DNA from: a virus
Taxonomy: Duplodnaviria; Heunggongvirae; Uroviricota; Caudoviricetes
IMG/VR virus record: IMGVR_UViG_3300018065_000012
Reading direction: 5' to 3' (one strand)
Length of the DNA stretch: 46,881 bases
Each line of letters starts with the position of its first letter. Position 1 is the first letter of the stretch. Position numbers and translations under genes: made by a program. The notes under the pieces were generated by a model that saw nothing but the letters and a program-made list of their open reading frames with translations, was not told the DNA's origin and ran no database searches. Shown here piece by piece: positions 11,624-41,494 of this stretch.

Positions 11624-11628
11624 ATTTT

Positions 11629-11716: not shown

Positions 11717-11734
11717 CTTGACAGGAGAATTTCA

Positions 11735-12289: not shown

Positions 12290-12294
12290 AATGT

Positions 12295-12381: not shown

Positions 12382-12388
12382 AACTAAA

Positions 12389-12661: not shown

Positions 12662-12677
12662 CTTCAAAGGGGAAATT

Positions 12678-13073: not shown

Positions 13074-13127
13074 AGCACGTCCTTGGTAAGGACGAGGTCA
13101 TGGGTTCGAGTCCCATCGGCAGCTCCA
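13053..13127 (+). tRNA. tRNA-Thr(GGU)
   Basis: Acceptor GCTGCCG/CGGCAGC, D GCTC/GAGC, anticodon stem CGTCC/GGACG loop UUGGUAA, T-arm ATGGG-TTCGAGT-CCCAT, U73, CCA. Confidence 0.8.
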
Positions 13128-13167
13128 AGCCTTTATCACCCCGCTATTTACGTTATGCAAATCATGG

Positions 13168-13244
13168 GCCACCTTAGCACAATTTGGCGGTGCGCTGCTT
13201 TCGTAAGGCAGAGGTTCCCGGTTCGAATCCGGGAGGTGGCTCCA
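13168..13244 (+). tRNA. tRNA-Thr(CGU)
   Basis: Acceptor GCCACCT/AGGTGGC, D GCAC/GTGC, anticodon stem CTGCT/GGCAG loop UUCGUAA, T-arm CCCGG-TTCGAAT-CCGGG, U73, CCA. Confidence 0.8.
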
Positions 13245-22650: not shown

Positions 22651-22671
22651 AATCACTAAAGGACTTGACCG

Positions 22672-23439: not shown

Positions 23440-23464
23440 AGAGAAATCTGGAAGAGGACTTGTA

Positions 23465-24987: not shown

Positions 24988-24991
24988 AGCA

Positions 24992-25744: not shown

Positions 25745-26499
25745 TGGCAGAGTTGGCCGTTGACATCAAGCGAATCAAGCAACTTCTGACAAAGAAGAAG
25801 TTGGACAATCTTGGAATCCAGTACAACAGTGCCAATGTTGTTCGGATTACAGATGGCGTTGTTGGAACTGATGATGGTGATGCTATCATGGAAGTCGGTT
25901 CTAACATCGACGTGGATATTTCAACGACTGGAGCAAACGCACTGGATACGGGTACGGTCAGCAATGATACTTGGTATTATCTCTTTCTCATTTTGAACCC
26001 GACGAATGGAACTGTTGCTGGATTGTTTTCATTGAGTGATACTGCCCCTACAATGCCTTCAGGATATACGAAGAAGCGACTTGTTAGTGTTCTTCGATAT
26101 TTCACAGCATCGTTTTCAAATTTCAGGCAATACAATTTTAGGGTGTACTATCCTCAAAATTATACCATCCTTTCTGGTGGGGGAAGCACGAGTCGGGTTC
26201 AACTAAACATAAGCAATTATGCGCCGAATGACTATACTCATTCTGCTCGACTTTTATTTATGGCGAACTGGAATAATGCTTTTGGAAACAGTGTAGTTTA
26301 TCTCGAAGCATTAAGTGGAAGCACCTATCATTACACAAGGGCTGGACTTTTTTCTGGTTCGTGGTGGTATAGATTCAGACAGACAAACGAAGCGGATGTA
26401 GGAATGATGTATGACAATCCCGTGCGTGTTTACTATTACACGGGCGATGCACAATGCCGATGCTCGATTTATGTCAAGGGCTACACGTTGAGATTATAA
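25744..26499 (+). CDS. Tandem paralog 6 of 6 (divergent)
   Basis: Starts at ATG 25744 (TAATG junction; the ORF-track frame opens at 25642). GANALDTGTVSNDTWYYLFLILNPTNGT...APTMPSGYTKKRL, C-terminal KGYTLRL. Confidence 0.55.
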   Translation: MAELAVDIKRIKQLLTKKKLDNLGIQYNSANVVRITDGVVGTDDGDAIMEVGSNIDVDISTTGANALDTGTVSNDTWYYLFLILNPTNGTVAGLFSLSDTAPTMPSGYTKKRLVSVLRYFTASFSNFRQYNFRVYYPQNYTILSGGGSTSRVQLNISNYAPNDYTHSARLLFMANWNNAFGNSVVYLEALSGSTYHYTRAGLFSGSWWYRFRQTNEADVGMMYDNPVRVYYYTGDAQCRCSIYVKGYTLRL

Positions 26500-26819: not shown

Positions 26820-28055
26820 ATGCCGCATCTTTTGACTCAAGCCCAACAGAAGGAACAGGTGGCAGACCTTTCCTTGTATGTTGACCCTTCTGCATCGACC
26901 ATGACGGGGACAAATACTTCTGCTGTTACCAAGAAGTTGATTGACAGTGGCGGGGGTTTTTCGTCTTTGAAACCCCGTCAAGTAGTCGTCAATACCACTG
27001 ACCATACTGCTACAATTATTGATTACGTAGAAGATGACACGACACTCGTTTTGAAGAATCACATCTTTACCGCGACTTCAAAAGGCTATTCTATCGACAA
27101 CAATGCAGGAACTTCGGGTGACAAATTTAAGTATCCTCAATCAGCAATGGAAGCAGTACCAGAGACAATTGGCTTCTATCTTCATGTGTATCTTGCCGAT
27201 GGGACGTATAGCGAAATCGGAACAAGTGACATAGTGCTTGGTCGTGCAACAGTTTCAGATGCGTTTCTTTACATCAACAAAAAGATGGCGGCTGGTGGAC
27301 GTATTATAATCGAAGGCAACACGACGACTCCAGCCAACGTGCATTTTAACGGAACAACTCCATCTGCTGCTGCTGGTGTTTTAATTCAGAATGCTCAGAA
27401 AGTAGAAGTTGGAGGGTTGAAGGTATCCAACTGTACCTATGGGATTACTGCTGAAGAAAATTCATCTTTCAGGCTTTATGATGTTATTGCGACTGATTGT
27501 ACTTATGGAATTTCTTTGTTTGATGATTCGGATGGACAAGGTTGGCGGTTGATTTCTGGTCAAAGTGGGACAGGCAACACTTATGGCGTTTATATGGAGC
27601 GTGGATATTTCTACGTTTCCGATGAATCTGTTGGGTCAAGTTCATCCTCTTTGCGCTACAATGGATACAATATCTATCTAAAGACTTCGAGAATCAAAGT
27701 TATTGGAAATGCTACTGCCAATGTAAATCTTTCGGACTCGACAAATCAAGGCGTCTTTGCTACTGAAGGAAGTTCGCTTGAATTTGACCGCATTACAGTC
27801 GATAGTGCAGGGGCAGCGGGAATAGAGATAACATTTGAGAGCAGTGGAAGTGTAGCCAATTCTACTATCTCAAACAATACGGCTCAAGGAATTTTAGCGT
27901 TTAATAATTCCGTGATATACTCAGATACCAATACGGGTGCTGGAAGCACTTATGGTTTATCTGCTCAGAATGGTTCGGTAATCTCTAAGAATAGTACACA
28001 GCCTACGGGTACTGTAAGCAATGAACAAACGGTAAATGGTGGAGCGATTTACTAA
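26820..28055 (+). CDS. Tandem paralog 1 of 3: putative tailspike/depolymerase-like protein with right-handed beta-helix (pectate-lyase-like) repeats
   Basis: Conserved N-terminus (ADLSLYVD...TMTGTNTS...LKP.QVVVNT.D.TAT(I/V)(I/V)DY) followed by repeated (V/I)xNCTxGIxxxEN / NTYGxxxE beta-helix-like motifs; 411 aa. Confidence 0.55.
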   Translation: MPHLLTQAQQKEQVADLSLYVDPSASTMTGTNTSAVTKKLIDSGGGFSSLKPRQVVVNTTDHTATIIDYVEDDTTLVLKNHIFTATSKGYSIDNNAGTSGDKFKYPQSAMEAVPETIGFYLHVYLADGTYSEIGTSDIVLGRATVSDAFLYINKKMAAGGRIIIEGNTTTPANVHFNGTTPSAAAGVLIQNAQKVEVGGLKVSNCTYGITAEENSSFRLYDVIATDCTYGISLFDDSDGQGWRLISGQSGTGNTYGVYMERGYFYVSDESVGSSSSSLRYNGYNIYLKTSRIKVIGNATANVNLSDSTNQGVFATEGSSLEFDRITVDSAGAAGIEITFESSGSVANSTISNNTAQGILAFNNSVIYSDTNTGAGSTYGLSAQNGSVISKNSTQPTGTVSNEQTVNGGAIY

Positions 28056-28075
28056 ATAGGTGCAGGAGTTAGCGA

Positions 28076-29311
28076 ATGCCCCTTTTGACTCAAAACCAGA
28101 AAAAAGCGCAAGTTGCAGACCTGAGTTTGTATGTTGATAATTCTCAGTCCACAATGACAGGAACGAATACATCCGTTGTTTCCAATAAACTGATTGATTC
28201 GAGTGCAGATTTCTCGACGTTGAAACCGCATCAGGTAGTAGTGAACACAAGCGACCATACAGCGACAATCATTGACTATGTTGAAAACGATACTACAATA
28301 GTTCTGAAAGAGAATATTTTTACGGCGACTCCAAAGGGCTATTCCGTTGACAATCACACAGGTGCTTCAAGCGACAAATTCAAATATCCGCAATCGACAA
28401 TGGAATCTGTTCCTGCAAATATTGACTTTTATCTACACGTCTATATTGCTGACGGGACATACAGTGAGATTTCGGCAAGTGATATAGATACTATTCGTGG
28501 TAGCTTTGGAAAGGCTTTTCTTTTCATCAACAAAAGAATGAACGCTGGTGGGCGTATTGTTGTTGAAGGTAATACGACCACTCCCGCCAATGTTCTTTTC
28601 AATGGTACAACTCCATCGGCTGCTGTTGGTGTTCTTGTTCAAGATACTCAGAAGGTTGAAGTGAAAGGATTGAAAGTAACGAATTGTACGCATGGGATTG
28701 GTGTTGTCGAGAATTCTTTCTTGACTGTTTCCGATACCATTACAAACAGCAACAATAATGGGTTTACGGTCTATATGTACTCGTATGTTTTAGCCTCTCG
28801 GATAATTTCTGGCGAAAGTGGCGTTAAGAACACTTATGGTATATTGATGGAGTCGAGTACCTTCAATATTGACGATTCAGGTTCGGGAGCAAACTCGTCG
28901 TCGTTGCGTTACAACACTGACAACATCAATGCGTATTCTTCGACAGTCGCAGTTACAGGCAATGCTACCGCTAACGTTAATTTGTCCGATTCTACAAATT
29001 GGGGCGTCATTTTAAGAACATGCAATACAGCGATTCTTGACCGTGTTATTATTGACAGTGCGAGTTCTGGTGGGGCAATTCAAGTCAATTACGAAGGCAA
29101 TTTGAGTATCAGCAATTCTGTTATCTCAAACAATTCAACGAGAGGAATTACAGCTTATAGTAATTCCTTCGTATACTCAAGCAACAATACTGGTGCGGGT
29201 CAATCGTATGGTTTGGTTGCTCAACATGGTTCGGTTATTTTGAAGAACGGTACACAACCCACAGGAACAACGTCAAATGAACAAACATCAACAGGTGGAG
29301 CGATTTATTAA
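28076..29311 (+). CDS. Tandem paralog 2 of 3 (beta-helix tailspike-like)
   Basis: Same architecture; AGGAG SD. Confidence 0.55.
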   Translation: MPLLTQNQKKAQVADLSLYVDNSQSTMTGTNTSVVSNKLIDSSADFSTLKPHQVVVNTSDHTATIIDYVENDTTIVLKENIFTATPKGYSVDNHTGASSDKFKYPQSTMESVPANIDFYLHVYIADGTYSEISASDIDTIRGSFGKAFLFINKRMNAGGRIVVEGNTTTPANVLFNGTTPSAAVGVLVQDTQKVEVKGLKVTNCTHGIGVVENSFLTVSDTITNSNNNGFTVYMYSYVLASRIISGESGVKNTYGILMESSTFNIDDSGSGANSSSLRYNTDNINAYSSTVAVTGNATANVNLSDSTNWGVILRTCNTAILDRVIIDSASSGGAIQVNYEGNLSISNSVISNNSTRGITAYSNSFVYSSNNTGAGQSYGLVAQHGSVILKNGTQPTGTTSNEQTSTGGAIY

Positions 29312-29330
29312 GAAGGTGTAGGAGTCAGAA

Positions 29331-30569
29331 ATGCAGCATCTTTTAGTCAGAGCGCAACAGAAGGAAAAAGTCACAAGCCTTGACCTTTACGTTGATGCTT
29401 CTCAAACAACGACGACAGGAACCAACACATCTGTTGTTAGTGGAAAGCTGGTTGATTCCACCGCAGATTTTCGGTCTTTGAAACCGCATCAAGTGGTTGT
29501 CAACACAACTGATGGTACGGCTACGGTTGTCGACTATGCGGAAAACAGAACAACGTTGGTTTTGAAGAACCACATTTTCACAGCAACAAGCAAAGCATAT
29601 AGTATTGATGACCATACAGGTTCTTCAAGCGACAAATTCAAGTATCCTCAATCAGCTTTAGAAGCGATGCCTTCAACAATTGGTATTATTTCTCGTGTCT
29701 ATATTGCTGACGGTACATATAATGTGATGGGAACAACTGATGTAATTTGTAATCGTGGCGATGTTACAAAAGCTATCCTTTACGTCAACAAAAGTTTTAC
29801 TGCTGGTGGTCGTATAGACATTATAGGCAATGTATCAACTCCGGCGAATGTTGCTTTTAATGGTACAACTCCTTCTTCGAATGCTGGTGTATTCGTTCAA
29901 GGCAGTCAGAAAATAGAAGTTGAAGGAATCAAGGTAACGAATTGTGTGCATGGGATTACTGCTCAAGAAAAATCATCGGTAGAGGTTTTCGATACGATTA
30001 CAAATAGCAACACTTATGGGTTGTCTGTTTTTTCTCAATCGGTTATGGATTGTTTTAGGGTAATTTCTGGCGAGAGTGGTGCGGGAAATTCTTATGGCGC
30101 ATACCTCGAAGACAGCAATTGTTACATTGCAGATTCAGCTTCAGGAGCAAATTCGTCTTCGCTTCGTTATAATACGACAAACAATATCTATGCGGTGTTT
30201 TCAAGATTGAGGGCGTTGGGCAATGTTACTGCCAATGTGAACTTGTCCAATGCTACGGGATGGGGAGTAATTGCAAGCAGAGGCAGCACGGTAGATTTTG
30301 ACTATGTAACGATTGACAGTTCGGGTGCAGGGGGTTTTCAGGCTACATATGAGAGCAATGCCAGTTTAAGGGATTCCGTTGTTTCAAATAATACCACTTG
30401 GGGCATTTCAGCCGACCTTAATTCGTATGTGAACTCCCGTGATATGAGTGGTGCTGGAAATGATTATGGTTTGGTTTCTGAACTTGGCTCCGTTGTTCAG
30501 AAAGTCGGTACACAGCCCACAGGAGTATCAGGAAACGAATTGACAGCTACGGGCGGTACGATTATCTAA
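29331..30569 (+). CDS. Tandem paralog 3 of 3 (beta-helix tailspike-like)
   Basis: Same architecture; AGGAG SD. Confidence 0.55.
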   Translation: MQHLLVRAQQKEKVTSLDLYVDASQTTTTGTNTSVVSGKLVDSTADFRSLKPHQVVVNTTDGTATVVDYAENRTTLVLKNHIFTATSKAYSIDDHTGSSSDKFKYPQSALEAMPSTIGIISRVYIADGTYNVMGTTDVICNRGDVTKAILYVNKSFTAGGRIDIIGNVSTPANVAFNGTTPSSNAGVFVQGSQKIEVEGIKVTNCVHGITAQEKSSVEVFDTITNSNTYGLSVFSQSVMDCFRVISGESGAGNSYGAYLEDSNCYIADSASGANSSSLRYNTTNNIYAVFSRLRALGNVTANVNLSNATGWGVIASRGSTVDFDYVTIDSSGAGGFQATYESNASLRDSVVSNNTTWGISADLNSYVNSRDMSGAGNDYGLVSELGSVVQKVGTQPTGVSGNELTATGGTII

Positions 30570-32635: not shown

Positions 32636-33571
32636 ATGACAAAGTATTTGGTTACTGGCGCGGCAGGTTTCATTGGTTCGCACCTTGTCGAAAATCTAAT
32701 CAAGCGTGGAGATAAAGTACGGGGTGTTGACAATTTTGCGACAGGTCGTCTTGAAAACATAAAGTCATTTCTCGATGATTTTGAATTTGTTGAAGGCGAT
32801 TTGAGAGAAGACAAAGTAGTTTCAGAAACAGTCAAAGACGTTGACGTAATCTTTCATGAAGCTGCAATTCCTTCTGTTCCCCGTTCTGTAGCCGACCCTT
32901 GGCTAAGTCACGAATCCAACGTTGATGTCACTTTGAAATTGCTAATGGCTTCGCGGGGGACGGTCAAGCGTTTGATTTATGCAGCGTCGTCTTCGGCCTA
33001 TGGTCAAAATCCACGATTGCCAAAAATTGAGAGTTTTCCAATTGCTCCAATTTCTCCGTATGCTGTAACGAAAGTCGTTGGCGAGTTGTATTGCAAAGTG
33101 TTTACTGAGATTTTTGAAGTTGAGACGATTTCTCTCCGGTATTTCAACGTTTTTGGTCCGCGTCAAAATCCAAAGTCACAGTATGCAGCGGTGATTCCAA
33201 AATTTATCGTTTCCATGTTGAGAGGAGAGCAACCACGTATTTATGGAGACGGTTTGCAATCCCGCGATTTTACATATGTCCAAAACGTCGTTGAAGCAAA
33301 TTTGTTAGCAGCGAAAGCAAAGAAGGCTTCAGGTCAGGTGTATAATATAGCCTGTGGACAACAGATTGATTTACTTACGTTGGTAACGAAAATCAATCAA
33401 CTTCTTGAAACAGAGATTGAACCAATTTTAGACCCGGAAAGAGCAGGCGACGTAAAGCATTCTTTGGCCGCTATTGATAATGCAAGGCGTGGATTGAAGT
33501 TTGAGCCGGTTGTGAGTTTTGATGAAGGTTTGGCAAAAACAGTTGATTGGTTTAAGTGTTGTCCTGAATAG
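32636..33571 (+). CDS. NAD-dependent sugar epimerase/dehydratase (UDP-sugar 4-epimerase-like, extended SDR)
   Basis: YLVTGAAGFIGSHL Rossmann motif, YAVTK (YxxxK), DGLQSRDFTYVQNVV. Confidence 0.75.
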   Translation: MTKYLVTGAAGFIGSHLVENLIKRGDKVRGVDNFATGRLENIKSFLDDFEFVEGDLREDKVVSETVKDVDVIFHEAAIPSVPRSVADPWLSHESNVDVTLKLLMASRGTVKRLIYAASSSAYGQNPRLPKIESFPIAPISPYAVTKVVGELYCKVFTEIFEVETISLRYFNVFGPRQNPKSQYAAVIPKFIVSMLRGEQPRIYGDGLQSRDFTYVQNVVEANLLAAKAKKASGQVYNIACGQQIDLLTLVTKINQLLETEIEPILDPERAGDVKHSLAAIDNARRGLKFEPVVSFDEGLAKTVDWFKCCPE

Positions 33572-33607
33572 TGTTATAAATTTTTGTTAAAAGTTTTAAG
33601 ATTTTCC

Positions 33608-33636
33608 TTGAAAACAAACGTCTAAGGTTGTATAAT
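33608..33636 (+). promoter_or_regulatory. sigma70-like promoter TTGAAA-N17-TATAAT (copy 3)
   Basis: TTGAAA 33608-33613, 17-nt spacer ending GGTTG, TATAAT 33631-33636. Confidence 0.6.
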
Positions 33637-33642
33637 GTATCG

Positions 33643-33847
33643 TTGAACAAAGGTCTTTTTGAAACTGGTGTAAAATGAATTTGGTCATAGCAAGCTCAAA
33701 CCATCCATGTCGATTCCCCGGACGCGGCGATGCCGCCCCAGCACGGGGTTGGTATGCGCCGTATTTCGGGCGTTTCGGGAGCTTGCTATGAGATAGGTAA
33801 CACAAAGTACTCAAGCAAGCCCCGAATGAAAATTCGGGGCTTTTTTA
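33643..33847 (+). ncRNA. candidate structured small RNA (about 200 nt) with its own promoter and terminator
   Basis: 13-bp perfect helix TCATAGCAAGCTC/GAGCTTGCTATGA enclosing GC-rich hairpins (CCCCG...CGGGG, GCGGC-GAT-GCCGC). Ends with a perfect terminator GCCCCGAA-TGAAAA-TTCGGGGC + T6 (33818-33847). A 38-aa ORF is possible but lacks an RBS. Confidence 0.45.
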
Positions 33848-33891
33848 TTGTTCTTTGACAACCAAATCGACAGCTTAACGCGGAAAAATTC

Positions 33892-33967
33892 GGGGATGTA
33901 GCTCAGTTGGGAGAGCGCTGCGTTCGCAATGCAGAGGTCAGGGGTTCGAATCCCCTCGTCTCCACCA
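33892..33967 (+). tRNA. tRNA-Ala(CGC) with G3-U70
   Basis: Acceptor GGGGATG/CGTCTCC, D GCTC/GAGC, anticodon stem CTGCG/TGCAG loop UUCGCAA, T-arm AGGGG-TTCGAAT-CCCCT, A73, CCA. Confidence 0.75.
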
Positions 33968-33975
33968 AATATAAT

Positions 33976-34052
<77 letters not shown>

Positions 34053-34054
34053 TT

Positions 34055-34130
34055 GGGGGCATAGCTCAGCTGGGAGAGCACAAGCTTTGCAAGCTTGGGG
34101 TCAGGAGTTCGAGTCTCCTTGCCTCCACCA
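34055..34130 (+). tRNA. tRNA-Ala(UGC) with G3-U70
   Basis: Acceptor GGGGGCA/TGCCTCC, D GCTC/GAGC, anticodon stem CAAGC/GCTTG loop UUUGCAA, T-arm AGGAG-TTCGAGT-CTCCT, A73, CCA. Confidence 0.8.
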
Positions 34131-34137
34131 AATACAA

Positions 34138-34271
34138 AAGGCACGCTTCAGTGAAGAGTTACTTCCCTTCGGCGGACGAAGTTCAGGTTCGATTCCTGAC
34201 CCTCCAACCATGATGGAGGGTAGTGTAATGGTAGCACGCGTAAAATATCTCTTTGCGTCTTTTGGTGCCTT
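34138..34271 (+). ncRNA. Bracketed element C1 with a permuted tRNA-like core (acceptor closed by an ACCATGA loop that encodes the discriminator and CCA)
   Basis: Terminal helix AAGGCAC/GTGCCTT; 5' module GCTTCAGTGAAGAGTTACTTC; T-arm TCAGG-TTCGATT-CCTGA; CCCTCCA-ACCATGA-TGGAGGG; D-arm GTGT-AATGGTA-GCAC; 3' module ...CTCTTTGCGTCTTTTGG. The anticodon region is aberrant. Confidence 0.5.
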
Positions 34272-34280
34272 TTATATTTT

Positions 34281-34388
34281 TCAGCACGCTTCAGTGATGA
34301 CATACTTCTTGGTTCAACTCCAACATCGCCCTCTATATGGGCGATGGTGCCACGTGGGTGGCGGTGTTGTTACGTTTTTTGGTGCTGA
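34281..34388 (+). ncRNA. Bracketed element C2 with a permuted tRNA-like core lacking an anticodon arm
   Basis: Terminal helix TCAGCAC/GTGCTGA; T-arm TTGG-TTCAACT-CCAA; acceptor CATCGCC-loop-GGCGATG; D-arm GCCA-CGTGGG-TGGC; 3' module CGTTTTTTGG. Confidence 0.5.
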
Positions 34389-34404
34389 ACTTTTTGAATA
34401 AATT

Positions 34405-34513
34405 CCGGCACGCTTCAGCGTGGGCTTACTTCTTTCTTAAAAAAAGAACCTGCCTGTTCGATTCAGGTGTTGGGTGGACCCGGTACAATTCGCTCATGCG
34501 TCTTTTGGTGCTG
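34405..34513 (+). ncRNA. Bracketed element C3 (anticodon-like arm and T-arm, degenerate acceptor and D parts)
   Basis: Terminal helix CCGGCAC/GTGCTGG (one G-U); TTCTTT-CUUAAAA-AAAGAA arm; T-arm GCCTG-TTCGATT-CAGGT; 3' module GCGTCTTTTGG. Confidence 0.45.
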
Positions 34514-34518
34514 GATTT

Positions 34519-34593
34519 AGCGGTGTTAGTGTATTGGTTGCACATTTGGTTCCCAGCCAGAAGGAGCCAGTTCGAGTCTGGTACACCGCTCCA
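34519..34593 (+). tRNA. tRNA-Gly(CCC)
   Basis: Acceptor GCGGTGT/ACACCGC, D GTGT/GCAC, anticodon stem TTTGG/CCAGA loop UUCCCAG, T-arm GCCAG-TTCGAGT-CTGGT, U73, CCA. Confidence 0.75.
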
Positions 34594-34596
34594 TTT

Positions 34597-34673
34597 GTCA
34601 AGGTAGCTCAGCACGGTAGAGCACTGGCCTGAAGAGCCGGGTGTCGTCGGTTCAAATCCGACCCTTGACGCCA
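34597..34673 (+). tRNA. tRNA-Phe(GAA)
   Basis: Acceptor GTCAAGG/CCTTGAC, D GCTC/GAGC, anticodon stem CTGGC/GCCGG loop CUGAAGA, T-arm GTCGG-TTCAAAT-CCGAC, G73, CCA. Confidence 0.8.
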
Positions 34674-34676
34674 CAC

Positions 34677-34752
34677 GCAGGCGCATGTTCCAAGGCTGGC
34701 GACGGGGATTCCAAATCCTTGTGGGTAGGTTCGATTCCTACCGTCTGCGCCA
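34677..34752 (+). tRNA. tRNA-Trp(CCA), copy 1
   Basis: Acceptor GCAGGCG/CGTCTGC, irregular D-arm, anticodon stem GGGGA/TCCTT loop UUCCAAA, T-arm GTAGG-TTCGATT-CCTAC, G73, CCA. Confidence 0.7.
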
Positions 34753-34755
34753 TAC

Positions 34756-34830
34756 AGGGCCATAGTTTAATTGGTAAAACGGGGGATTCCAAATCCTTTG
34801 ATGCGGGTTCGATTCCTGCTGGCCCTGCCA
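34756..34830 (+). tRNA. tRNA-Trp(CCA), copy 2 (identical anticodon arm, different body, A1-U72)
   Basis: Acceptor AGGGCCA/TGGCCCT, D GTTT/AAAC, anticodon stem GGGGA/TCCTT loop UUCCAAA, T-arm GCGGG-TTCGATT-CCTGC, G73, CCA. Confidence 0.7.
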
Positions 34831-34836
34831 ATCTGT

Positions 34837-34928
34837 GGAGAGTGTTCCCCACGGCAGACTGTAAATCTGTTGCCCATCAGAATAAGTGGGGTGGCGGCGA
34901 ATGGGTTCAATTCCCTCACTCTCCACCA
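34837..34928 (+). tRNA. atypical tRNA-Tyr(GUA)-like, 92 nt: 8-bp acceptor, no canonical D-arm, enlarged variable region (possible pseudo-tRNA)
   Basis: Acceptor GGAGAGTG/CACTCTCC; anticodon arm GCAGA-CUGUAAA-TCTGT; only TT-CCCC-ACG between the acceptor and anticodon stems; GTGGGG in the variable region could pair with CCCC; weak T-stem GGG/CCC; A73, CCA. Confidence 0.4.
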
Positions 34929-34932
34929 TTAA

Positions 34933-35018
34933 GGAGCGGTAGTCTAATTGGTAAGGCAGTGGGCTGTAAACCCACCGGCATTGCGCCATTGGAGGTTCGA
35001 GTCCTCCCCGCTCCACCA
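34933..35018 (+). tRNA. tRNA-Tyr(GUA), class II
   Basis: Acceptor GGAGCGG/CCGCTCC, D GTCT/AGGC, anticodon stem GTGGG/CCCAC loop CUGUAAA, variable arm CGGCATTGCGCCAT, T-arm GGAGG-TTCGAGT-CCTCC, A73, CCA. Confidence 0.8.
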
Positions 35019-35039
35019 TTTTTCTTTTTCAGCAAAAAT

Positions 35040-35061
35040 CTTTTATATTCGGTTGTATAAT
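35040..35061 (+). promoter_or_regulatory. weaker promoter-like site sharing the GGTTGTATAAT -10 element (no good -35)
   Basis: TATAAT 35056-35061 preceded by GGTTG as in the other promoters; the -35 region is CAAAAA. Confidence 0.3.
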
Positions 35062-35083
35062 ATAAGGGTAATTCTCACAGGGG

Positions 35084-35338
35084 ATGAATATGGAAACTCG
35101 GCCAGAAACGGGCAAAATGAAGTTTGGCGACGACTGGTCTGGAATATTCATCCGAGGCGACAATGCTTTCAATTATCATATGCAACTCAAAGAAGTTTTG
35201 AAAGACAATGGCGGTGAATTCGGCATTATTGCGAAACATACAATCCGAGATTTGATTGATCTTTTGGAATCTTGCGAAGAGCATAATGATATCAAACCGC
35301 AAAAATTGAAATCATTCGAGGAATGCCGTTATGAATGA
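35084..35338 (+). CDS. hypothetical protein (84 aa)
   Basis: ORF-track frame; overlaps the dCMP deaminase start by 8 nt. Confidence 0.45.
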   Translation: MNMETRPETGKMKFGDDWSGIFIRGDNAFNYHMQLKEVLKDNGGEFGIIAKHTIRDLIDLLESCEEHNDIKPQKLKSFEECRYE

Positions 35339-35786
35339 TAGACCATCCATTGACCAGACGATGATGGATATTGCAAAAACTTGGTCCTTTCGATCAAGAT
35401 GTTTACGGCGACAAGTGGGTTCAGTAATCGTAAAAGACAAACATGTTTTGACTTCTGGTTATAATGGCCCGCCAAAAGGGTTGCCTCATTGCGATGAATG
35501 TGGTGGTTGTTTGCGGCAAGAAATGGATTTGCCGTCAGGCGAACGTCAAGAACTTTGCAGAGGTTCTCACGCAGAATTGAATGCAATTATTCAAGCGGCA
35601 ATATTTGGGATAAGCGTAAAAGGCGCAACGCTGTATTGCACAAACTTTCCTTGTAACTTTTGTGCCAAAGCAATTGTTCAAGCTGAGATTAAAAAAGTCA
35701 TTTACGAAGATGACTATACGGAAGACGATAACATGGCAAAACAAATGCTTGAACATGTTGGAATTAAAATGGAGAAATTTGAATGA
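35331..35786 (+). CDS. cd: dCMP deaminase (cytidine/deoxycytidylate deaminase family)
   Basis: Zinc-binding HAELNAI and PCNFCAKAI (H[AC]E...PCxxC) motifs; size and context as in T4-type dCMP deaminases. Confidence 0.8.
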   Translation: MNDRPSIDQTMMDIAKTWSFRSRCLRRQVGSVIVKDKHVLTSGYNGPPKGLPHCDECGGCLRQEMDLPSGERQELCRGSHAELNAIIQAAIFGISVKGATLYCTNFPCNFCAKAIVQAEIKKVIYEDDYTEDDNMAKQMLEHVGIKMEKFE

Positions 35787-35962
35787 GCTGGAAAGATTTT
35801 CTTTACGGCGCGGCATCTGTTCTCGACTTGTCTGGTTCAATGGGCAATGCGCAAGTGAATGAAATTTTGCGCAAGTCTGACGCGGAAGCATTGAGGTCAG
35901 ATTGGGAAGCAGTTGGACAAGACATGTGGAAGGCGATTGAACAATCTGAAGATGTCGGGTGA
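35783..35962 (+). CDS. small acidic hypothetical protein (59 aa), translationally coupled to cd
   Basis: ATGA overlap with the cd stop; MSWKDFLYGAASVLDLSGSMGNAQVNEILRKSDAEALRSDWEAVGQDMWKAIEQSEDVG*. The stop lies inside the next tRNA. Confidence 0.45.
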   Translation: MSWKDFLYGAASVLDLSGSMGNAQVNEILRKSDAEALRSDWEAVGQDMWKAIEQSEDVG

Positions 35963-36038
35963 GCGCAGCTGGTGCTGTGAGTGGCCTGCAAAGCCATTTG
36001 GCCTTTGGGTCCAACTGGTTCGATTCCAGCATCCGACT
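35954..36038 (+). tRNA. tRNA-Sec-like (8/4 'allo-tRNA' architecture) tRNA with GCA (Cys) anticodon
   Basis: 8-bp acceptor GTCGGGTG/CATCCGAC; 6-bp D-stem CGCAGC/GCTGTG with 4-nt loop TGGT; 6-bp anticodon stem AGTGGC/GCCATT with loop CUGCAAA; long variable arm TGGCCTTTGGGTCCAA; 4-bp T-stem CTGG/CCAG with loop TTCGATT; U73; no encoded CCA. Confidence 0.5.
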
Positions 36039-36056
36039 CTAATTTGGAGAACATGA

Positions 36057-36311
36057 ATGCCAAAAAGAAGTTTCCCGCTCAAGATCAGTTTTGATCATGA
36101 AATTGATCGAGATACGATGTTTTTTCTTGCTGTAAAGTTTGCGAGAGAATATCCAAAAGCAGCGACACAAATAATTGGAGCATTGGAAGGGGAACGGAAA
36201 TATTGCAAGATCAATTGTCCGTTCCCTTTTGTATGTAGTGAGTTTCCTTGCAAAACGCTTTGTTGTAACGCAGACTGCTGCGACAACGGCCACGCTTATA
36301 GGATGAGCTGA
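36057..36311 (+). CDS. hypothetical Cys-rich protein (84 aa)
   Basis: GGAG SD. The C-terminus has CKINCPFPFVCSEFPCKTLCCNADCCDNGH. Confidence 0.45.
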   Translation: MPKRSFPLKISFDHEIDRDTMFFLAVKFAREYPKAATQIIGALEGERKYCKINCPFPFVCSEFPCKTLCCNADCCDNGHAYRMS

Positions 36312-36685
36312 TGCAATACGAACTTGAAAATGGTTACAAGGTTTGGGTGAACGCGAAGACTTACCGCTCGAAATTGAACAAGCAAGTTTGCATCAAATGT
36401 TTGAAACAGTATTGGCCAGATGCAGATTCCGTTTGGGATGTTCAAGCAGAACTGAAATGGGAAGAAGGCAGGTTGTATATTTGTCCTTGTTCTTCTGTTA
36501 ACGGGCGCGATGAAAACCGCAGAGCAGGCCGATACAACGAAGGCCGGTTGATCGAACACGACCCACCGGAAGCTTGCCCATTCAAAACAGAGCATCTTGT
36601 CAGTTGTAATAAACAAGGTTTCATCTATTATAAAAGCCGCATTGAGGAGTATTGCGAAAAGAATTTCAAAAAGGTGAAAAGGTGA
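36311..36685 (+). CDS. hypothetical protein (124 aa, Cys-containing)
   Basis: TGATG overlap with the upstream gene. Confidence 0.5.
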   Translation: MQYELENGYKVWVNAKTYRSKLNKQVCIKCLKQYWPDADSVWDVQAELKWEEGRLYICPCSSVNGRDENRRAGRYNEGRLIEHDPPEACPFKTEHLVSCNKQGFIYYKSRIEEYCEKNFKKVKR

Positions 36686-36873
36686 AGCTGATTGTAAAAT
36701 TTGTCGTCTTGATTGCTGGAAGTTATCTTTGCTATTTGTCTTGGGCTGAGCCAAAAACAATTATTTGGCTGTATGGAAATTATATCATGCCGGTTTTCTT
36801 TGCATGTATTCCGTTTTATGCAGCATGGTGGTGCTATCAAGACTTAAAGAGCGCCCGTAGCTCAGATGGATAG
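36682..36873 (+). CDS. small membrane protein (about 63 aa, two hydrophobic helices)
   Basis: GTG start overlapping the upstream TGA (GTGA). VKLIVKFVVLIAGSYLCYLSW...IMPVFFACIPFYAAWWCY. The 3' end overlaps tRNA-Arg(CCG). The ORF-track frame starts at 36652. Confidence 0.4.
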   Translation: MKLIVKFVVLIAGSYLCYLSWAEPKTIIWLYGNYIMPVFFACIPFYAAWWCYQDLKSARSSDG

Positions 36874-36927
36874 AGCGTCTGCCTCCGGAGCAGAAGGTCA
36901 CAGGTTCGAGTCCTGTCGGGCGTGCCA
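36851..36927 (+). tRNA. tRNA-Arg(CCG)
   Basis: Acceptor GCGCCCG/CGGGCGT, D GCTC/GAGC, anticodon stem TCTGC/GCAGA loop CUCCGGA, T-arm ACAGG-TTCGAGT-CCTGT, G73, CCA. Confidence 0.8.
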
Positions 36928-36946
36928 AACATACGAGGATGAAAGA

Positions 36947-37204
36947 ATGATAATCATGGAGCATGGAAACGTCGATAAACAAGTACCCAATCAAGGCGCG
37001 TGGGATATTCATGTTGCGGGGCAAGAAAAATATCCACTGGTGGTGATCCTTTGTCCCAAATGTCAAAAAGTATCTTGTCTCCGTAATCATACGATTCATC
37101 GCGACGGGACAGTTTCACCAAGCTTGGTCTGTCCAAGAGATGAATGTAATTTTCATGAAATGATCAAGTTGAAAGACTGGAAAGGGTTGCCTCAAAAATT
37201 GTAG
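36947..37204 (+). CDS. small zinc-ribbon-like protein (85 aa)
   Basis: ATG 36947 after GAGGATGAAAGA (the ORF-track frame from 36866 opens inside the tRNA). CPKCQ...CPRDEC. Confidence 0.45.
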   Translation: MIIMEHGNVDKQVPNQGAWDIHVAGQEKYPLVVILCPKCQKVSCLRNHTIHRDGTVSPSLVCPRDECNFHEMIKLKDWKGLPQKL

Positions 37205-37207
37205 TTT

Positions 37208-37283
37208 GGGCCGGTAACTCAATTGGTAGAGAACCGTTCTTATACAGCGGTAGTCGTTGGTTCGAATCCAACCCGGCCTACCA
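37208..37283 (+). tRNA. tRNA-Ile(UAU)
   Basis: Acceptor GGGCCGG/CCGGCCT, D ACTC/GAGA (3 bp), anticodon stem CCGTT/AGCGG loop CUUAUAC, T-arm GTTGG-TTCGAAT-CCAAC, A73, CCA. Anchored to ORF-track TTG 37223. Confidence 0.75.
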
Positions 37284-37304
37284 AATTCAAGATGGAGTGG
37301 AATT

Positions 37305-37559
37305 ATGAAAGAGGGACGCATAAGCAAAGGTGGCGTGGGAAATCCTCCAACAAGACCAAGACCCAAGCCACCAAAGGGACAAGGAGGCTCTCAAAAGTTG
37401 AAAGAAGTTTTGGAAGCCCTTGAATTCTATGCTGATGAAAGCAATTGGAAAAACGGGACGTCAGTTCATTACGAATGGGCGACGTTTGCTGAGTTGGATG
37501 AAGGCAAACGGGCAAGAAAAGCACTTGAAAAATATCGGGGTGTAGGAAAGTCTGGTTAA
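37305..37559 (+). CDS. hypothetical protein (84 aa)
   Basis: ATG 37305 after GGAGTGG (the ORF-track frame starts at 37257 inside the tRNA). The last 24 nt overlap tRNA-Pro(CGG). Confidence 0.4.
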   Translation: MKEGRISKGGVGNPPTRPRPKPPKGQGGSQKLKEVLEALEFYADESNWKNGTSVHYEWATFAELDEGKRARKALEKYRGVGKSG

Positions 37560-37613
37560 TCCGCTACGTTCGGGACGTAGAGATCGCCGGTTCAAATCCG
37601 GCCACCCCGACCA
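37536..37613 (+). tRNA. tRNA-Pro(CGG)
   Basis: Acceptor CGGGGTG/CACCCCG, D GGAA/ATCC (3 bp), anticodon stem CTACG/CGTAG loop UUCGGGA, T-arm GCCGG-TTCAAAT-CCGGC, A73, CCA. Confidence 0.8.
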
Positions 37614-37629
37614 CTTTAGGAAAAGGCTG

Positions 37630-37764
37630 ATGAACGATCCAAAAGCTTATCAATACACAGGCTCATTGAGTGACAAGTTCTTTATTGTGTTGATCATTTT
37701 AGCAATGATTTCTGTTCCTATTTTTATTATAATTGCGTTTTTGTATTGGGTTCCAAGGAGCTAA
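37630..37764 (+). CDS. small single-TM membrane protein (44 aa)
   Basis: AGGAAAAGG SD then ATG 37630. MNDPKAYQYTGSLSDKFFIVLIILAMISVPIFIIIAFLYWVPRS*. The stop lies 1 nt before the next ATG. Confidence 0.4.
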   Translation: MNDPKAYQYTGSLSDKFFIVLIILAMISVPIFIIIAFLYWVPRS

Positions 37765-37765
37765 A

Positions 37766-38008
37766 ATGCTTTACACGGTTGGCGAGACAGAAAAATACGA
37801 GCAATATATAAAAGAGCAAGGCACGATTTCAAAGGCAGTTGGTGGCTCAGTTTGGAGTTCAAAAGAAGCCGCGCAAAAGTATTTGAAAGAAAGAGGGTTG
37901 CTTGGAAAATTTACTGTTTACGGCATTGACGCCGGTTGGAATGATACTGAATATACAGGTAATCCTTGGCGTGATTTGAAAATTGTTGCAAAAATAATTG
38001 AACTTTGA
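37766..38008 (+). CDS. hypothetical protein (80 aa)
   Basis: ATG 37766 after AAGGAG (the ORF-track frame starts at 37733). Confidence 0.5.
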   Translation: MLYTVGETEKYEQYIKEQGTISKAVGGSVWSSKEAAQKYLKERGLLGKFTVYGIDAGWNDTEYTGNPWRDLKIVAKIIEL

Positions 38009-38082
38009 GCGGGTGTAGCTTAATGGTAAAGCTCCAGCCTTCCAAGCTGATCACGTGGGTTCGATTCCCATCGCCCGCTCCA
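38009..38082 (+). tRNA. tRNA-Gly(UCC)
   Basis: Acceptor GCGGGTG/CGCCCGC, D GCTT/AAGC, anticodon stem CCAGC/GCTGA (C27/A43 mismatch) loop CUUCCAA, T-arm GTGGG-TTCGATT-CCCAT, U73, CCA. Confidence 0.7.
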
Positions 38083-38087
38083 TTTAA

Positions 38088-38161
38088 GCGGCTGTAGCTC
38101 AGTGGTAGAGCGCAAGGTTGCCAATCTTGCTACGAGGGTTCGATTCCCTTCAGCCGCTCCA
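38088..38161 (+). tRNA. tRNA-Gly(GCC)
   Basis: Acceptor GCGGCTG/CAGCCGC, D GCTC/GAGC, anticodon stem CAAGG/TCTTG loop UUGCCAA, T-arm GAGGG-TTCGATT-CCCTT, U73, CCA. Confidence 0.8.
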
Positions 38162-38223
38162 AAATTAAAGATGAAACGGAGATATATGATGAGCCAATCA
38201 CCTTTTGTTCGGGGGATTACATC

Positions 38224-38481
38224 ATGGACGCTCCAAAATGCGAACATCTGTTACCATTTTTGCAAGCTCAAACGCGGCTGATAACAAAACATTTGGGCGA
38301 GCATAAATGGTTCCAAAAAATTGAAAGTGAAAATGAAGCAGTTGGAGATTTCATTGAAAAGTTTGGGTGGGTAATGCGAGAATTCTTTTGTGGTTATTGT
38401 TGTGAACATCGTTATGAATGCGACATTGCCATAGAATACGATTTCTTGCCGCCAGAGAGGAAAAAGCAAAATGACCCTTGA
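38224..38481 (+). CDS. hypothetical protein (85 aa, Cys/His-containing)
   Basis: ORF-track frame; a GGGGGA lies upstream. Confidence 0.4.
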   Translation: MDAPKCEHLLPFLQAQTRLITKHLGEHKWFQKIESENEAVGDFIEKFGWVMREFFCGYCCEHRYECDIAIEYDFLPPERKKQNDP

Positions 38482-39274
38482 AGAAGCACGCAAACTTGTT
38501 TTGAAATCATTCAACAAAAGTGATTTCTATTACAACCATCAATCGCCGCATGGCTATACAAACTTCATTGACGGGATGGCGTGGGTTGGTTTATTGTGCG
38601 GCGCATGTCATCTTGTGGATGACAAAGAGTTGGCGGCATTAGCAGAAAACTACTTGAGAATGCTTTTGAAAGTTGGACCGGATGCAAGAAATTATGCGCC
38701 GATGAAAGTAAGAGACGACTGGATCAAATCTGAAACAGCTCCCGGATTTTGGTACCGTAAAAAGCCGCAGTCCTTCGCGGGGCCAGCGGCTTTATTGTTT
38801 GCTATCAACTGCGGCGCAAAATTGGATAACCCCTTCAACATTGAATCACGTGCCAAGTGGATGCGTTTCTTAAATCCATTCTTTGGTTATCTTGTGCGTT
38901 GGTTTCATTGGTTCAGACAGCATATCAATAGTCAGTTTATCGCTCATTTGATTAACGATTCCAAACCGCCAAGCTCAATGCTTTGGTTGTGCGAGGAAAA
39001 TCCTTTTTTCAGCGCTATTGCTGGAATTGAATGCAGTGTTGAATACCCGAAATCATGGAGCCGGTTTCAAAAGTATGAAACAAAAGACGTGGACGATATT
39101 CAACCGCTGAAAAACCGGAAACCATCAGCTTGGATTTTCAGAAGTTGGCCCAAGGCCGAATACACTGGCGCACTTCCTTACGCGGGCAGTGCTTATACGC
39201 CAACGGCAATGGTTGTTGGTGAATATTTGCAACAGCATTTGAGGAAGAAAAATGCCAAAGTACAAGACAGTTGA
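38471..39274 (+). CDS. hypothetical protein (267 aa, Trp/Phe-rich)
   Basis: Overlaps the upstream gene by 11 nt. No motif recognised. Confidence 0.5.
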   Translation: MTLEEARKLVLKSFNKSDFYYNHQSPHGYTNFIDGMAWVGLLCGACHLVDDKELAALAENYLRMLLKVGPDARNYAPMKVRDDWIKSETAPGFWYRKKPQSFAGPAALLFAINCGAKLDNPFNIESRAKWMRFLNPFFGYLVRWFHWFRQHINSQFIAHLINDSKPPSSMLWLCEENPFFSAIAGIECSVEYPKSWSRFQKYETKDVDDIQPLKNRKPSAWIFRSWPKAEYTGALPYAGSAYTPTAMVVGEYLQQHLRKKNAKVQDS

Positions 39275-39491
39275 GGAACTTGCGCAAGCATTCCAAACAG
39301 GTGAGTTTGGAGCAGATGGTCAAGTTATCAAGATTGAATCGGATGACATAAACGCTTCATTGGTTCGGGTAACTTGCGCAGAGGAAAGTCCTGACGAGTT
39401 TGAAATAATGTTCGAAGGATACGTACAAGGCGGTTATACAAAAGTGAAAAACGAGCTTGGGCCGTCTTTTGGAAGAGCGAAAAAAGAATGA
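39252..39491 (+). CDS. hypothetical acidic protein (79 aa)
   Basis: Overlaps the upstream gene by 23 nt. Confidence 0.45.
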   Translation: MPKYKTVEELAQAFQTGEFGADGQVIKIESDDINASLVRVTCAEESPDEFEIMFEGYVQGGYTKVKNELGPSFGRAKKE

Positions 39492-39494
39492 CGT

Positions 39495-39571
39495 CGGGGT
39501 GTGGCTCAGCTTGGTAGAGCGCTTGACTGGGGGTCAAGAGGTCGCTGGTTCAAATCCAGTCACCCCGACCA
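39495..39571 (+). tRNA. tRNA-Pro(GGG)
   Basis: Acceptor CGGGGTG/CACCCCG, D GCTC/GAGC, anticodon stem CTTGA/TCAAG loop CUGGGGG, T-arm GCTGG-TTCAAAT-CCAGT, A73, CCA. Confidence 0.8.
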
Positions 39572-40654: not shown

Positions 40655-40682
40655 TTGAAAGCTGTCGGCTTGGTTGTATAAT
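40655..40682 (+). promoter_or_regulatory. sigma70-like promoter TTGAAA-N16-TATAAT (copy 4)
   Basis: TTGAAA 40655-40660, spacer ending GGTTG, TATAAT 40677-40682. Confidence 0.55.
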
Positions 40683-40705
40683 AAAACAGTGGTCCAGCAA
40701 ATAAT

Positions 40706-40770
40706 TCGACACGCTTCAGCGCAAAGATACTTCTTGGTATAGAAAAGCTTTGCTCGATTTTTGGTGTCGA
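40706..40770 (+). ncRNA. Bracketed element D (minimal copy) in its own promoter-to-hairpin unit
   Basis: Terminal helix TCGACAC/GTGTCGA; 5' module GCTTCAGCGCAAAGATACTTC; inner helix GCAAAG/CTTTGC; 3' module TCGATTTTTGG. Confidence 0.55.
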
Positions 40771-40781
40771 TTTTCTTAATA

Positions 40782-40842
40782 GGCTCGGGGCGGAACCTAT
40801 CACACCACACCAAATTGGATCGCCTCTATACTGCCCCGAGCC
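40782..40842 (+). terminator. long hairpin GGCTCGGGGC-(41 nt)-GCCCCGAGCC followed by a U-rich TTCTCTT (terminator-like)
   Basis: Perfect 10-bp GC-rich inverted repeat downstream of element D. Confidence 0.4.
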
Positions 40843-41002
40843 TTCTCTTAATATATTGATATGAACGGAATTACACTTGCGTCAAACACCTTACCCATTA
40901 TTTTTTTATATTTTTCCTTATAGTAGAGGACGCTATTATTGTGTTCGGCTGAGGTTGTGTAAATACGATTCTCCAAGAATCTTAAGACGTGACGGGTAGA
41001 CA

Positions 41003-41494
41003 ATGAGAAAGTGGCGCGTAATCCGAGATTTTTACCTTGGAGAGTCTGATCGCATCAAAGCGAGAAATCCGAATGAAGACAATTTCATGCTTTATGAAGG
41101 CACAATTATCTATGAGGCAGAAAATACCGATCGCGTAGTCATCAATGGAAAAGTTTATCATTTCAGAATTGGAACAGTTTTTACTCGCTTTTGCGTTCTT
41201 GAAGAAACACTTCCAGAATCGGTTACAGGCGACACAATGCCGGGTGGGGTGTTACCAGCGGACCTTGTTTGGAAAGGTCCAAGTGATCTGACCACCATCA
41301 TCGCCGGGAAACGATATCAAACCCCAGATAGATTTTTTGAGGAGAGTCTCGTTGTTGCAATTCGTGGTTTGATTGTTGCCGATGAAAATGTCGATGGATT
41401 CACAATCATCGACGACCAAACATTTGAAATGAAAGAAACCTACACAAAACCGAAGGATTGGATCATGTGTGGGTATGTTAAGAAAAGCTCATGA
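41003..41494 (+). CDS. hypothetical protein (163 aa)
   Basis: ORF-track frame; its stop overlaps the start of the collagen-like gene (ATGA). Confidence 0.5.
   Translation: MRKWRVIRDFYLGESDRIKARNPNEDNFMLYEGTIIYEAENTDRVVINGKVYHFRIGTVFTRFCVLEETLPESVTGDTMPGGVLPADLVWKGPSDLTTIIAGKRYQTPDRFFEESLVVAIRGLIVADENVDGFTIIDDQTFEMKETYTKPKDWIMCGYVKKSS

Follow-up and report, generated by a model that had tools for sequence, protein, structure and literature searches.

A candidate leader-peptide attenuator upstream of a tRNA gene cluster in a huge phage

In the IMG/VR virus record IMGVR_UViG_3300018065_000012 (Caudoviricetes; 46,881 nucleotides (nt), the whole stretch being called the window below), a unit at positions 33643–33847 lies between a strong promoter and the second of two clusters of tRNA genes. 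With a probability of roughly 0.75, on the basis of its sequence and predicted folding, this unit acts as a ribosome-mediated (leader-peptide) transcription attenuator and decides whether transcription from the promoter at 33608 continues into tRNA cluster 2. We also find it likely that a clade of huge phages feedback-controls its tRNA arrays through "codon-sampler" leader peptides, with about one codon for every tRNA species and linked to a switch between antiterminator and terminator, the array being on when any tRNA is limiting and off when the supply is adequate. The window is part of a huge phage, and assemblies in ENA, Logan and JGI contain its sequence on contigs as long as 338 kb. In it, ARAGORN identifies 47 tRNA genes, in clusters at 2585–13244 and 33892–39571. 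Among GenBank phages there is no close relative of the window (blastn, and tblastn with two window proteins).

The unit is preceded by a sigma-70-type promoter (33608–33636; all features of the unit are on the + strand), with a −35 box TTGAAA (33608–33613), a −10 box TATAAT (33631–33636) and a spacing of 17 nt, which matches the consensus at 11 of 12 positions; transcription would start near 33643. At the other end is an intrinsic terminator (33817–33846), with an 11-base-pair (bp) stem at 33817–33842, a UGAA loop and six U residues (33841–33846). The core of the terminator, GCCCCGAA-UGAAAA-UUCGGGGC, occupies 33819–33840 and its stem can be extended to the 11 bp; from the end of the terminator to the first tRNA of cluster 2 there are 45 nt. 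Between the two ends, a 13-bp perfect long-range helix is formed by 33685–33697 (UCAUAGCAAGCUC) and 33779–33791 (GAGCUUGCUAUGA), with about 25 unpaired nt between the helix and the terminator. The minimum free energy (MFE) of 33643–33847 is −84.9 kcal/mol; 200 dinucleotide shuffles give −58.3 ± 4.6 (z = −5.7), and none of them folds as stably. A preliminary description, made by a model from the letters alone, had pointed out this promoter-to-terminator unit upstream of cluster 2, the highly structured RNA of about 200 nt, the perfect long-range helix and the perfect terminator with its U6 tract, all of which are present. It took the whole for a structured RNA with limited coding potential; the discrete folded unit stands, but the evidence speaks against a free-standing non-coding RNA: the helix is an anti-antiterminator that competes with an antiterminator and the terminator, in a design that recurs nine more times.

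Folding models give four regions with mutually exclusive pairings: 1:2 (anti-antiterminator), 2:3 (antiterminator) and 3:4 (terminator). Region 1 (33685–33697), the anti-antiterminator strand, is the 5′ strand of the 13-bp helix and spans codons 4–8 of a small open reading frame (ORF). Region 2 (33774–33792), the 3′ strand of the helix together with six bases upstream, has two alternative partners, region 1 (13 bp) or region 3 (17 bp). Region 3 (33810–33826), the 3′ strand of the antiterminator, overlaps the 5′ arm of the terminator and the seven bases before that arm. The 2:3 pairing has 17 bp with two 1-nt bulges, its hairpin alone being at −23.8 kcal/mol; the corresponding duplex is at −26.8 kcal/mol, versus −16.0 ± 2.6 with the upstream sequence shuffled, and 2 of 2000 shuffles reach the observed value. 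The 3:4 terminator hairpin is at −19.1 kcal/mol. A GC-rich inner hairpin (33710–33778), present in both the MFE and the centroid structures, holds most of the codons for cluster 2 (codons 12–35) and has UAUUU directly 3′ of it; from the predicted fold, it may be an RNA polymerase pause hairpin.

The leader ORF (33675–33791; 38 codons and a TGA; peptide MNLVIASSNHPCRFPGRGDAAPARGWYAPYFGRFGSLL) begins 10 nt before region 1, and its TGA (33789–33791), which falls in region 2, is separated from the terminator stem by 25 nt. The context of the AUG at 33675 is A/U-rich and weakly paired. The 3′ end of 16S rRNA carries CACC, complementary to GGUG, and a weak GGUG resembling a Shine–Dalgarno (SD) sequence can be read at 33667–33670, 4 nt upstream of the AUG, so that the earlier statement of a 38-residue ORF without ribosome-binding site was right for the ORF and only roughly right for the site. 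The proposed target, cluster 2 (33892–39571, + strand), contains 15 tRNAs of 14 anticodon species: Ala (CGC, UGC), Pro (UGG, CGG, GGG), Gly (CCC, UCC, GCC), Phe (GAA), Trp (CCA, twice), Tyr (GUA), Cys (GCA), Arg (CCG) and Ile (UAU), with small ORFs and Y-RNA-like genes scattered among them. Cognate codons for all 14 species occur in the leader ORF, including AUA for tRNA-Ile(UAU) and CGG for tRNA-Arg(CCG), and 21 of the 31 codons from 5 to 35 are decoded by cluster-2 tRNAs. None of 7,616 windows of 38 codons taken from the genes of the window covers all 14 anticodons; the other five frames of the same stretch cover 9–13. An ORF that starts before region 1, ends in region 2 and has codons for every downstream tRNA species does not agree with the negligible coding role assumed earlier. 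It suggests that the peptide is translated, an outcome that the preliminary description itself had held to speak against its reading.

A sister unit (2859–3057, + strand) stands ahead of the main body of cluster 1. Its leader ORF (2859–3002, + strand; 47 codons; peptide MFCFRFAEQSASLLMRKHERGIAASGRLILSPSLTKQEVVLNTNDTS) has a good SD sequence, AAGGUGA, and includes cognate codons for 26 of the 30 anticodon species in cluster 1. The 1:2 helix has 11 bp, between region 1 at 2873–2883 (codons 5–9) and the part 3008–3018 of region 2 (3003–3018), and the 2:3 pairing joins 3003–3015 to the 5′ arm of the terminator (−19.6 versus −13.2 ± 2.2 in shuffles, p about 0.01). Besides that terminator (3028–3057, + strand) and the one ahead of cluster 2, the tRNA regions contain no strong intrinsic terminator. 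When the two leaders of the window are compared on their own and on the other cluster, each prefers its own (Fisher p = 2.3e-4).

The region upstream of the sister unit has a particular order: promoter 1 (2526) is followed by a tRNA-Met and about 200 nt (2585–2858 in all) before the sister leader. The tRNA-Met, whose 1:72 pair is mismatched and whose T-loop (GGUGCAAUUCC) is unusual, is upstream of the attenuator and would therefore escape its control. The same order of promoter, tRNA-Met and leader occurs in two other contigs (L080 and L093; loci are named here by L numbers). Between the tRNA-Met and the sister ORF, 2660–2858 is ORF-poor and strongly folding, without any Rfam match.

Relatives were recovered by a scan with the motif CACGCTTCAGYG...WTACTTC, which opens six Y-RNA-like genes in the tRNA clusters. 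The scan gave one 253-kb phage contig in IMG/VR and 55 loci in the JGI metagenomes, about 25 of which have tRNA arrays on the motif strand; the motif marks a clade of huge-phage contigs. In GTDB genomes, 10 matches were found versus about 17 estimated by chance, and in the one match inspected closely (L110) the motif is inside a long ORF on the opposite strand; for both reasons, the GTDB matches were treated as chance. The family considered here consists of ten units, two in the window and eight in other huge-phage contigs (two in the 253-kb contig and one each in L093, L088, L050, L064, L073 and L080). Two candidates were kept out: L068/L085, with a long GC hairpin directly after the tRNAs, and L072, where no matching ORF was found.

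What the sequences show is the elements, the exclusive pairings with their statistics and, across the ten units, the match between leader codons and tRNAs. The layout comprises a promoter of the TGTATAAT type, an SD sequence, a small ORF, a gap of 23–33 nt, a strong terminator and a tRNA array. The distance from stop codon to terminator stem is 23–33 nt in all ten, and the SD sequences of the nine other units (GGAG, AGGAG, AAGGAG, GAGG or GGTG) are 5–10 nt upstream of the start. The leader peptides have no common sequence; their composition follows the amino acids of their own downstream tRNAs. In the 253-kb contig, the leader MNKFALLPVLPVFDAAAYEWLTAGRELCG (MNKFALLPVLPVFDAAAYEWL...) precedes a first array for Tyr, Ala, Val, Glu, Leu, Phe, Asp, Trp and Pro, and the leader VLTFLTTTSSNGFSMSLNCGNKRSQRQGHITCKMPGGGKTET a second array for Lys, Asn, Ile, Arg, Gly, His, Ser, Met, Thr, Cys and Gln. 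In L093, the leader MKMMDARTRTRTTGRTGWTGTASGVCSVPV (...RTRTRTTGRTGWTGT...) goes with Thr, Trp, Arg, Arg, Thr and Gly; in L088, MMVLLSSVSFSSCGYLNSLTERGAL (...VLLSSVSFSSCGYLNSL...) with Phe, Ser, Tyr, Asn, Val, Leu and Cys; in L050 (homologues in L064 and L073), VNTQQHMITRKAEASQATIPVRPEEDKAPCGLVL with Lys, Pro, His, Ile, Ala, Met, Glu, Arg and Asp; and in L080, ...AVLLPVNLSCEVSESLQDDFGPAP with Asp, Leu, Glu, Val, Ile, Ser and Gln. The 253-kb contig splits the amino acids between its two arrays unlike the window phage, and its leaders still track their own array (Fisher p = 3e-5).

In a permutation test on eight non-redundant units, every leader was scored against every array. Out of 40,320 permutations, no other does as well as the true assignment of leaders to arrays, whether the score is the fraction of leader codons decoded or that of anticodon species covered, with own-array anticodon coverages of 0.87, 1.0, 0.90, 0.95, 0.93, 1.0, 1.0 and 1.0. 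The unit at 33643–33847 has the best leader for cluster 2, and cluster 2 is the array best covered by that leader. With the peptides fixed and the synonymous codons randomised, the real leaders cover more isoacceptors (combined p = 0.003), which points to the sensing of tRNA species and not of amino acids alone. In 8 of the 10 units, the 3′ end of the ORF forms a far stronger antiterminator with the 5′ arm of the terminator than shuffles do (p ≤ 0.01 each), with typical values of −29 to −33 kcal/mol versus about −15 to −20; in six units, none of 500 shuffles reaches the observed value.

As proposed, transcription would begin near 33643 and a ribosome would initiate at the AUG 33675, the 38 codons then sampling every downstream tRNA species. 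With the cognate aminoacyl-tRNAs plentiful, the ribosome would reach the stop and mask region 2, the 3:4 terminator would form and transcription would end at 33846. The stop codon is inside region 2, and a terminating ribosome would therefore cover that region and leave the terminator free. If any of the sampled tRNAs is scarce, the ribosome would stall earlier, region 1 would be kept off region 2, and the free region 2 would form the 17-bp antiterminator with region 3; no terminator would form and the polymerase would read through, past a boxA-like box, into the array. With no ribosome, the 13-bp 1:2 helix and the terminator would both form, the default state being off. The net effect would be a negative feedback of the phage on its own tRNA supply, with codon-usage mismatch, host shut-off and tRNA-cleaving defence systems as the proposed causes of a limiting tRNA. 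Translation of the ORF, stalling and the direction of the regulation are in this scheme predictions drawn from the sequence.

Two folding models were used for the switch. In an equilibrium fold of the complete leader with a masked ribosome footprint, the terminator was kept nearly always, and for this reason the model was changed to a fold before the 3′ arm of the terminator exists. This second model takes the transcript up to just before that arm, with a 30-nt ribosome footprint held unpaired. In 7 of the 10 units, the terminator arm is then sequestered with an early stall and largely free with the ribosome at the stop.

Several observations, mainly on the unit at 33643–33847 itself, weigh against the attenuator. 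Its SD sequence is only weak (GGUG, 4 nt from the AUG), those of the nine other units being clearer. In the second model, a crude masking model, its terminator arm is clearly sequestered only for stalls at codons 1–13, 21–22 and 28–29; most of the cluster-2 codons are at 11–35, where region 1, behind the ribosome, might still reach region 2. The antiterminated state is at a disadvantage of about 14 kcal/mol at equilibrium, relative to the state in which both the 1:2 helix and the terminator are formed, so that kinetics must decide whether read-through takes place. Most species of codon are represented by one or two copies in the leader, a weaker stall signal than the codon runs in hisL or pheL. 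When the ORF is dinucleotide-shuffled, about 2.5% of the shuffles also cover 14 anticodons (composition-controlled p about 0.025); with its GC-rich composition taken into account, the codon coverage of this unit on its own is suggestive, not conclusive. The strong statistics stem from the family of units and not from this unit alone. Further, no sequence homologue of the unit was found in GenBank phages (blastn), in IMG/VR (two exact 24-mers), in JGI metagenomes (region 2/3 pattern) or in 57 motif-derived loci (blastn).

Other searches around the unit gave little. With a relaxed region 2/3 pattern, the sole match in IMG/VR is an unrelated coding gene of an actinophage, which was rejected; a pseudo-protein translated across the tRNAs had no match, nor had a tRNA-junction pattern in IMG/VR. 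For a 485-residue glycosyltransferase, one relative with 81% identity exists (in L017), with a different gene order there.

Three other explanations were weighed. The unit could be a ribosome-independent attenuator, the helix-closed domain being an aptamer or a site that binds a metabolite, protein or tRNA, the ORF being incidental, and binding tipping the balance between helix plus terminator on one side and antiterminator on the other. One strand shared by closing helix, antiterminator and terminator is the standard layout of a transcriptional riboswitch, and the GC-rich, very stable enclosed region and the weak SD sequence would suit such a reading. It leaves unexplained, however, both the stop codon inside region 2 and the ORF composition of ten independent units tracking their downstream tRNAs. 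A 13-bp perfect closing helix is far more stable than the P1 helices typical of ligand-gated systems, the enclosed sequences of the units cannot be aligned with each other, and no Rfam riboswitch or T-box matches, even at E ≤ 10. We consider a ribosome-independent attenuator unlikely.

The preliminary description favoured a free-standing structured small RNA, acting in trans on host or phage targets or binding a protein. For such an RNA, the antiterminator pairing, the placement of the stop and the match between codons and tRNAs have no role, and neither a family match nor a conserved homologue is seen; the discrete promoter-to-terminator unit with its z of −5.7 and the unpaired nt between helix and terminator would suit it, and on balance it is an improbable reading. 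A small-RNA role could also hold alongside the attenuator, since terminated attenuator RNAs can act again in trans, as described for rnTrpL of Sinorhizobium (PMC6614838). Very improbable, finally, is a functional gene for a 38-residue protein with incidental RNA structure, or a chance by-product of a GC-rich hairpin beside a terminator. The ORF does exist, and a GC-rich stretch will specify Ala, Pro, Gly and Arg whichever frame is read, as the 9–13 anticodons of the other frames illustrate; but the peptide is of low complexity and without homologue, and the ten leader peptides share nothing but the rule that their composition matches the downstream tRNAs. This rule holds also for sets with AT-rich codons (like Phe, Ser, Tyr, Asn, Val, Leu and Cys in L088), and for the family chance is rejected at 1 in 40,320.

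Known RNA families do not account for the unit. The preliminary description could not match it to 6S RNA, transfer-messenger RNA (tmRNA), RNase P or a common riboswitch and proposed an Rfam scan; that scan and ARAGORN agree with it. At gathering score, Rfam finds only tRNAs in the whole window, and in 33500–33950 at E ≤ 10 only terminator-driven noise, with no riboswitch or T-box; ARAGORN finds no tmRNA. The matches to Thr_leader and Phe_leader (E = 1.5–2.8; 16–17 bits versus a gathering score of 55) were set aside as terminator noise. Identities of the leader unit with 6S-like, signal recognition particle-like, retron, T-box or Y RNAs were dropped, there being no defining motif.

A boxA-like box, TGTTCTTTGACAAC, is present at 33849–33862 (+ strand), 30 nt before the first tRNA of cluster 2. 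On the + strand of the window, its exact core TCTTTGACAA occurs only at 3649 and 33852, each 24–31 nt before the first tRNA of an array; the same core is found upstream of tRNA groups in L046, L047, L050, L068, L072, L088 and L091, the distances in the window and in these seven loci being 24–160 nt. In the form (T)GTTCTTTGACAA(C), the box is generally 5–160 nt upstream of the first tRNA of an array. The instances are, in the window, 2571–2580, 3649–3658 and 33849–33862, and elsewhere L046 232, L047 3160, L050 9028, L068 1073, L072 130 and 1775 (the latter 345 nt upstream), L088 3204 and 4688, and L091 43. At 3638–3666, the box overlaps the spacer of a promoter-like TTGAAA-17-TATAAC site. Between the terminator and the first tRNA of cluster 2, there is no independent consensus promoter.

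The boxA of rrn operons is UGCUCUUUAACAA in E. coli and UGUUCUUUGAAAAC in Bacillus, and boxA occupies the same position in rRNA and tRNA operons. The phage box resembles it closely and lies, as a conserved sequence, between the attenuator and an untranslated RNA operon, as in rrn-type antitermination by Nus factors; unlike the established rrn boxA, it is known by its likeness in sequence and its repeated placement. For untranslated arrays it may serve as a site of Nus-factor antitermination, in which case the polymerases that pass the attenuator would become termination-resistant and transcribe the long untranslated array.

Near-identical strong promoters occur exactly three times in the window (2526, 33608 and 40655), with a chance expectation of 0.06, and the style CTTGAAA...TGTATAAT is common to these three and to the promoters of the related units. 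The third, at 40655 (TTGAAA-16-TATAAT), is followed by about 320 nt without obvious ORF (40655–41003) and then by an ORF at 41003. This stretch begins with a short Y-RNA-like stem unit, without tRNA module (40707–40775), and contains a long hairpin, GGCTCGGGGCGG...CTGCCCCGAGCC, at about 40782–40843.

In all, six Y-RNA-like genes are found in or beside the tRNA clusters, at 3966–4040, 4129–4272, 34139–34268, 34282–34392, 34406–34520 and 40707–40775, each closed by a conserved stem CCAGCACGCTTCAGYG...GCGTYTTTTGGTGCTGG. At least four of them have a tRNA-like module, clearest at 4129 and 34139 and read by eye only at 34282 and 34406. The order of its parts, a T-arm, then a loop-closed acceptor stem, then a D-arm, makes the modules look like circularly permuted tRNAs. 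ARAGORN calls none of these genes, and the Rfam model YrlA matches 34182–34237 below threshold (24.4 bits, E = 0.005).

Among the tRNAs of cluster 2, the 86-nt tRNA at 35953–36039 has a Cys anticodon GCA according to ARAGORN, and its best Rfam model is that of the selenocysteine tRNA, RF01852 (60.6 bits, above the gathering score of 47); it may be a tRNA-Sec-like tRNA-Cys. At 34681–34830 there are two adjacent tRNA-Trp(CCA) genes, the first of which has 72 nt with the anticodon at position 31 and is not called by Rfam at gathering score.

The window also encodes sugar-modifying enzymes, paralogous families of tail-fibre-like proteins and a collagen-like giant ORF. Tandem or repetitive genes form three sets, at 21886–26499, 26820–30569 and 42000–46881. 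They include six tandem paralogues of about 254 residues, with a weak match to the second domain of Mtd, three tandem beta-helix paralogues of 411 residues, and the giant ORF with GXY-type collagen-like repeats (more than 1,894 residues in L002). In the relative L017, this block is found rearranged, and it is therefore probably a fast-evolving host-recognition module. Just upstream of the leader unit is an epimerase gene (32636–33571), and inside cluster 2 a dCMP deaminase gene (35331–35786). Neither has phage relatives, and their best matches, bacterial (Chloroflexota-like) or archaeal with 56–60% identity, suggest genes recently acquired from cells, with a host-derived look.

Proposals on why phages carry tRNA genes and when they use them include codon-usage matching, host shut-off and escape from tRNA-cleaving defence. 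If the attenuator reading is true, each tRNA would have a built-in sensor of its availability, the tRNA supply of the phage would be actively balanced and the question of phage tRNA use would become testable. For annotation, there would be a simple rule by which regulators of this type can be recognised in phage genomes from metagenomes; for engineering, a compact device that senses how available tRNAs are. Leader-peptide attenuation would be extended to RNA genes as targets, with one codon per tRNA species and up to 26 of them, and that of tRNA genes would be the most multivalent attenuator known.

The structural features of leader-peptide attenuators are all present in the unit: the terminator, the 2:3 pairing, the 1:2 pairing with region 1 in the ORF, and the placement of the stop; in addition, the regulatory codons match the function of the downstream genes (14 of 14 anticodons). 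With the leaders trpL, hisL, pheL and leuL, and the multivalent thrL and ilvL, the phage unit has in common a short leader ORF (translation being predicted here), exclusive 1:2, 2:3 and 3:4 hairpins, and an intrinsic terminator just upstream of the regulated genes. In trpL, the stop codon is placed such that the ribosome covers region 2 and leaves the terminator free; in the phage unit also, a terminating ribosome would mask region 2. Stalling at hungry codons is the signal in such leaders, and the same signal is proposed here. There are also clear differences. The leaders of amino-acid operons regulate biosynthetic enzymes, whereas the phage units, encoded by huge phages, would regulate tRNA genes. 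Instead of containing runs of one or two codon types, the phage leader samples as many as 14 amino acids and 26 anticodon species. Unlike in classical leaders, an 81-nt hairpin carrying most of the sensor codons stands between regions 1 and 2, and no sequence similarity to the classical leader attenuators exists.

Among regulators of translation components, the leader pheM of pheST (phenylalanyl-tRNA synthetase) is a case of leader-peptide attenuation that senses charged tRNA; it is bacterial and regulates a synthetase for a single amino acid, and the phage unit precedes tRNA genes. The T-box riboswitches also have a competition between terminator and antiterminator that responds to the status of a tRNA, but no ribosome is involved in them: they contact the uncharged tRNA directly, by means of a specifier codon and the T-box sequence, and regulate synthetase and amino-acid genes. 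In the full-text literature, with the incomplete coverage of such a search and an earlier description being possible, no leader peptide or attenuator for phage tRNA genes or tRNA clusters was found. The proposed mechanism itself is classical; what is new is that it would act on tRNA genes, in a phage, and that the leader samples up to 26 anticodon species instead of carrying a run of one or two codons.

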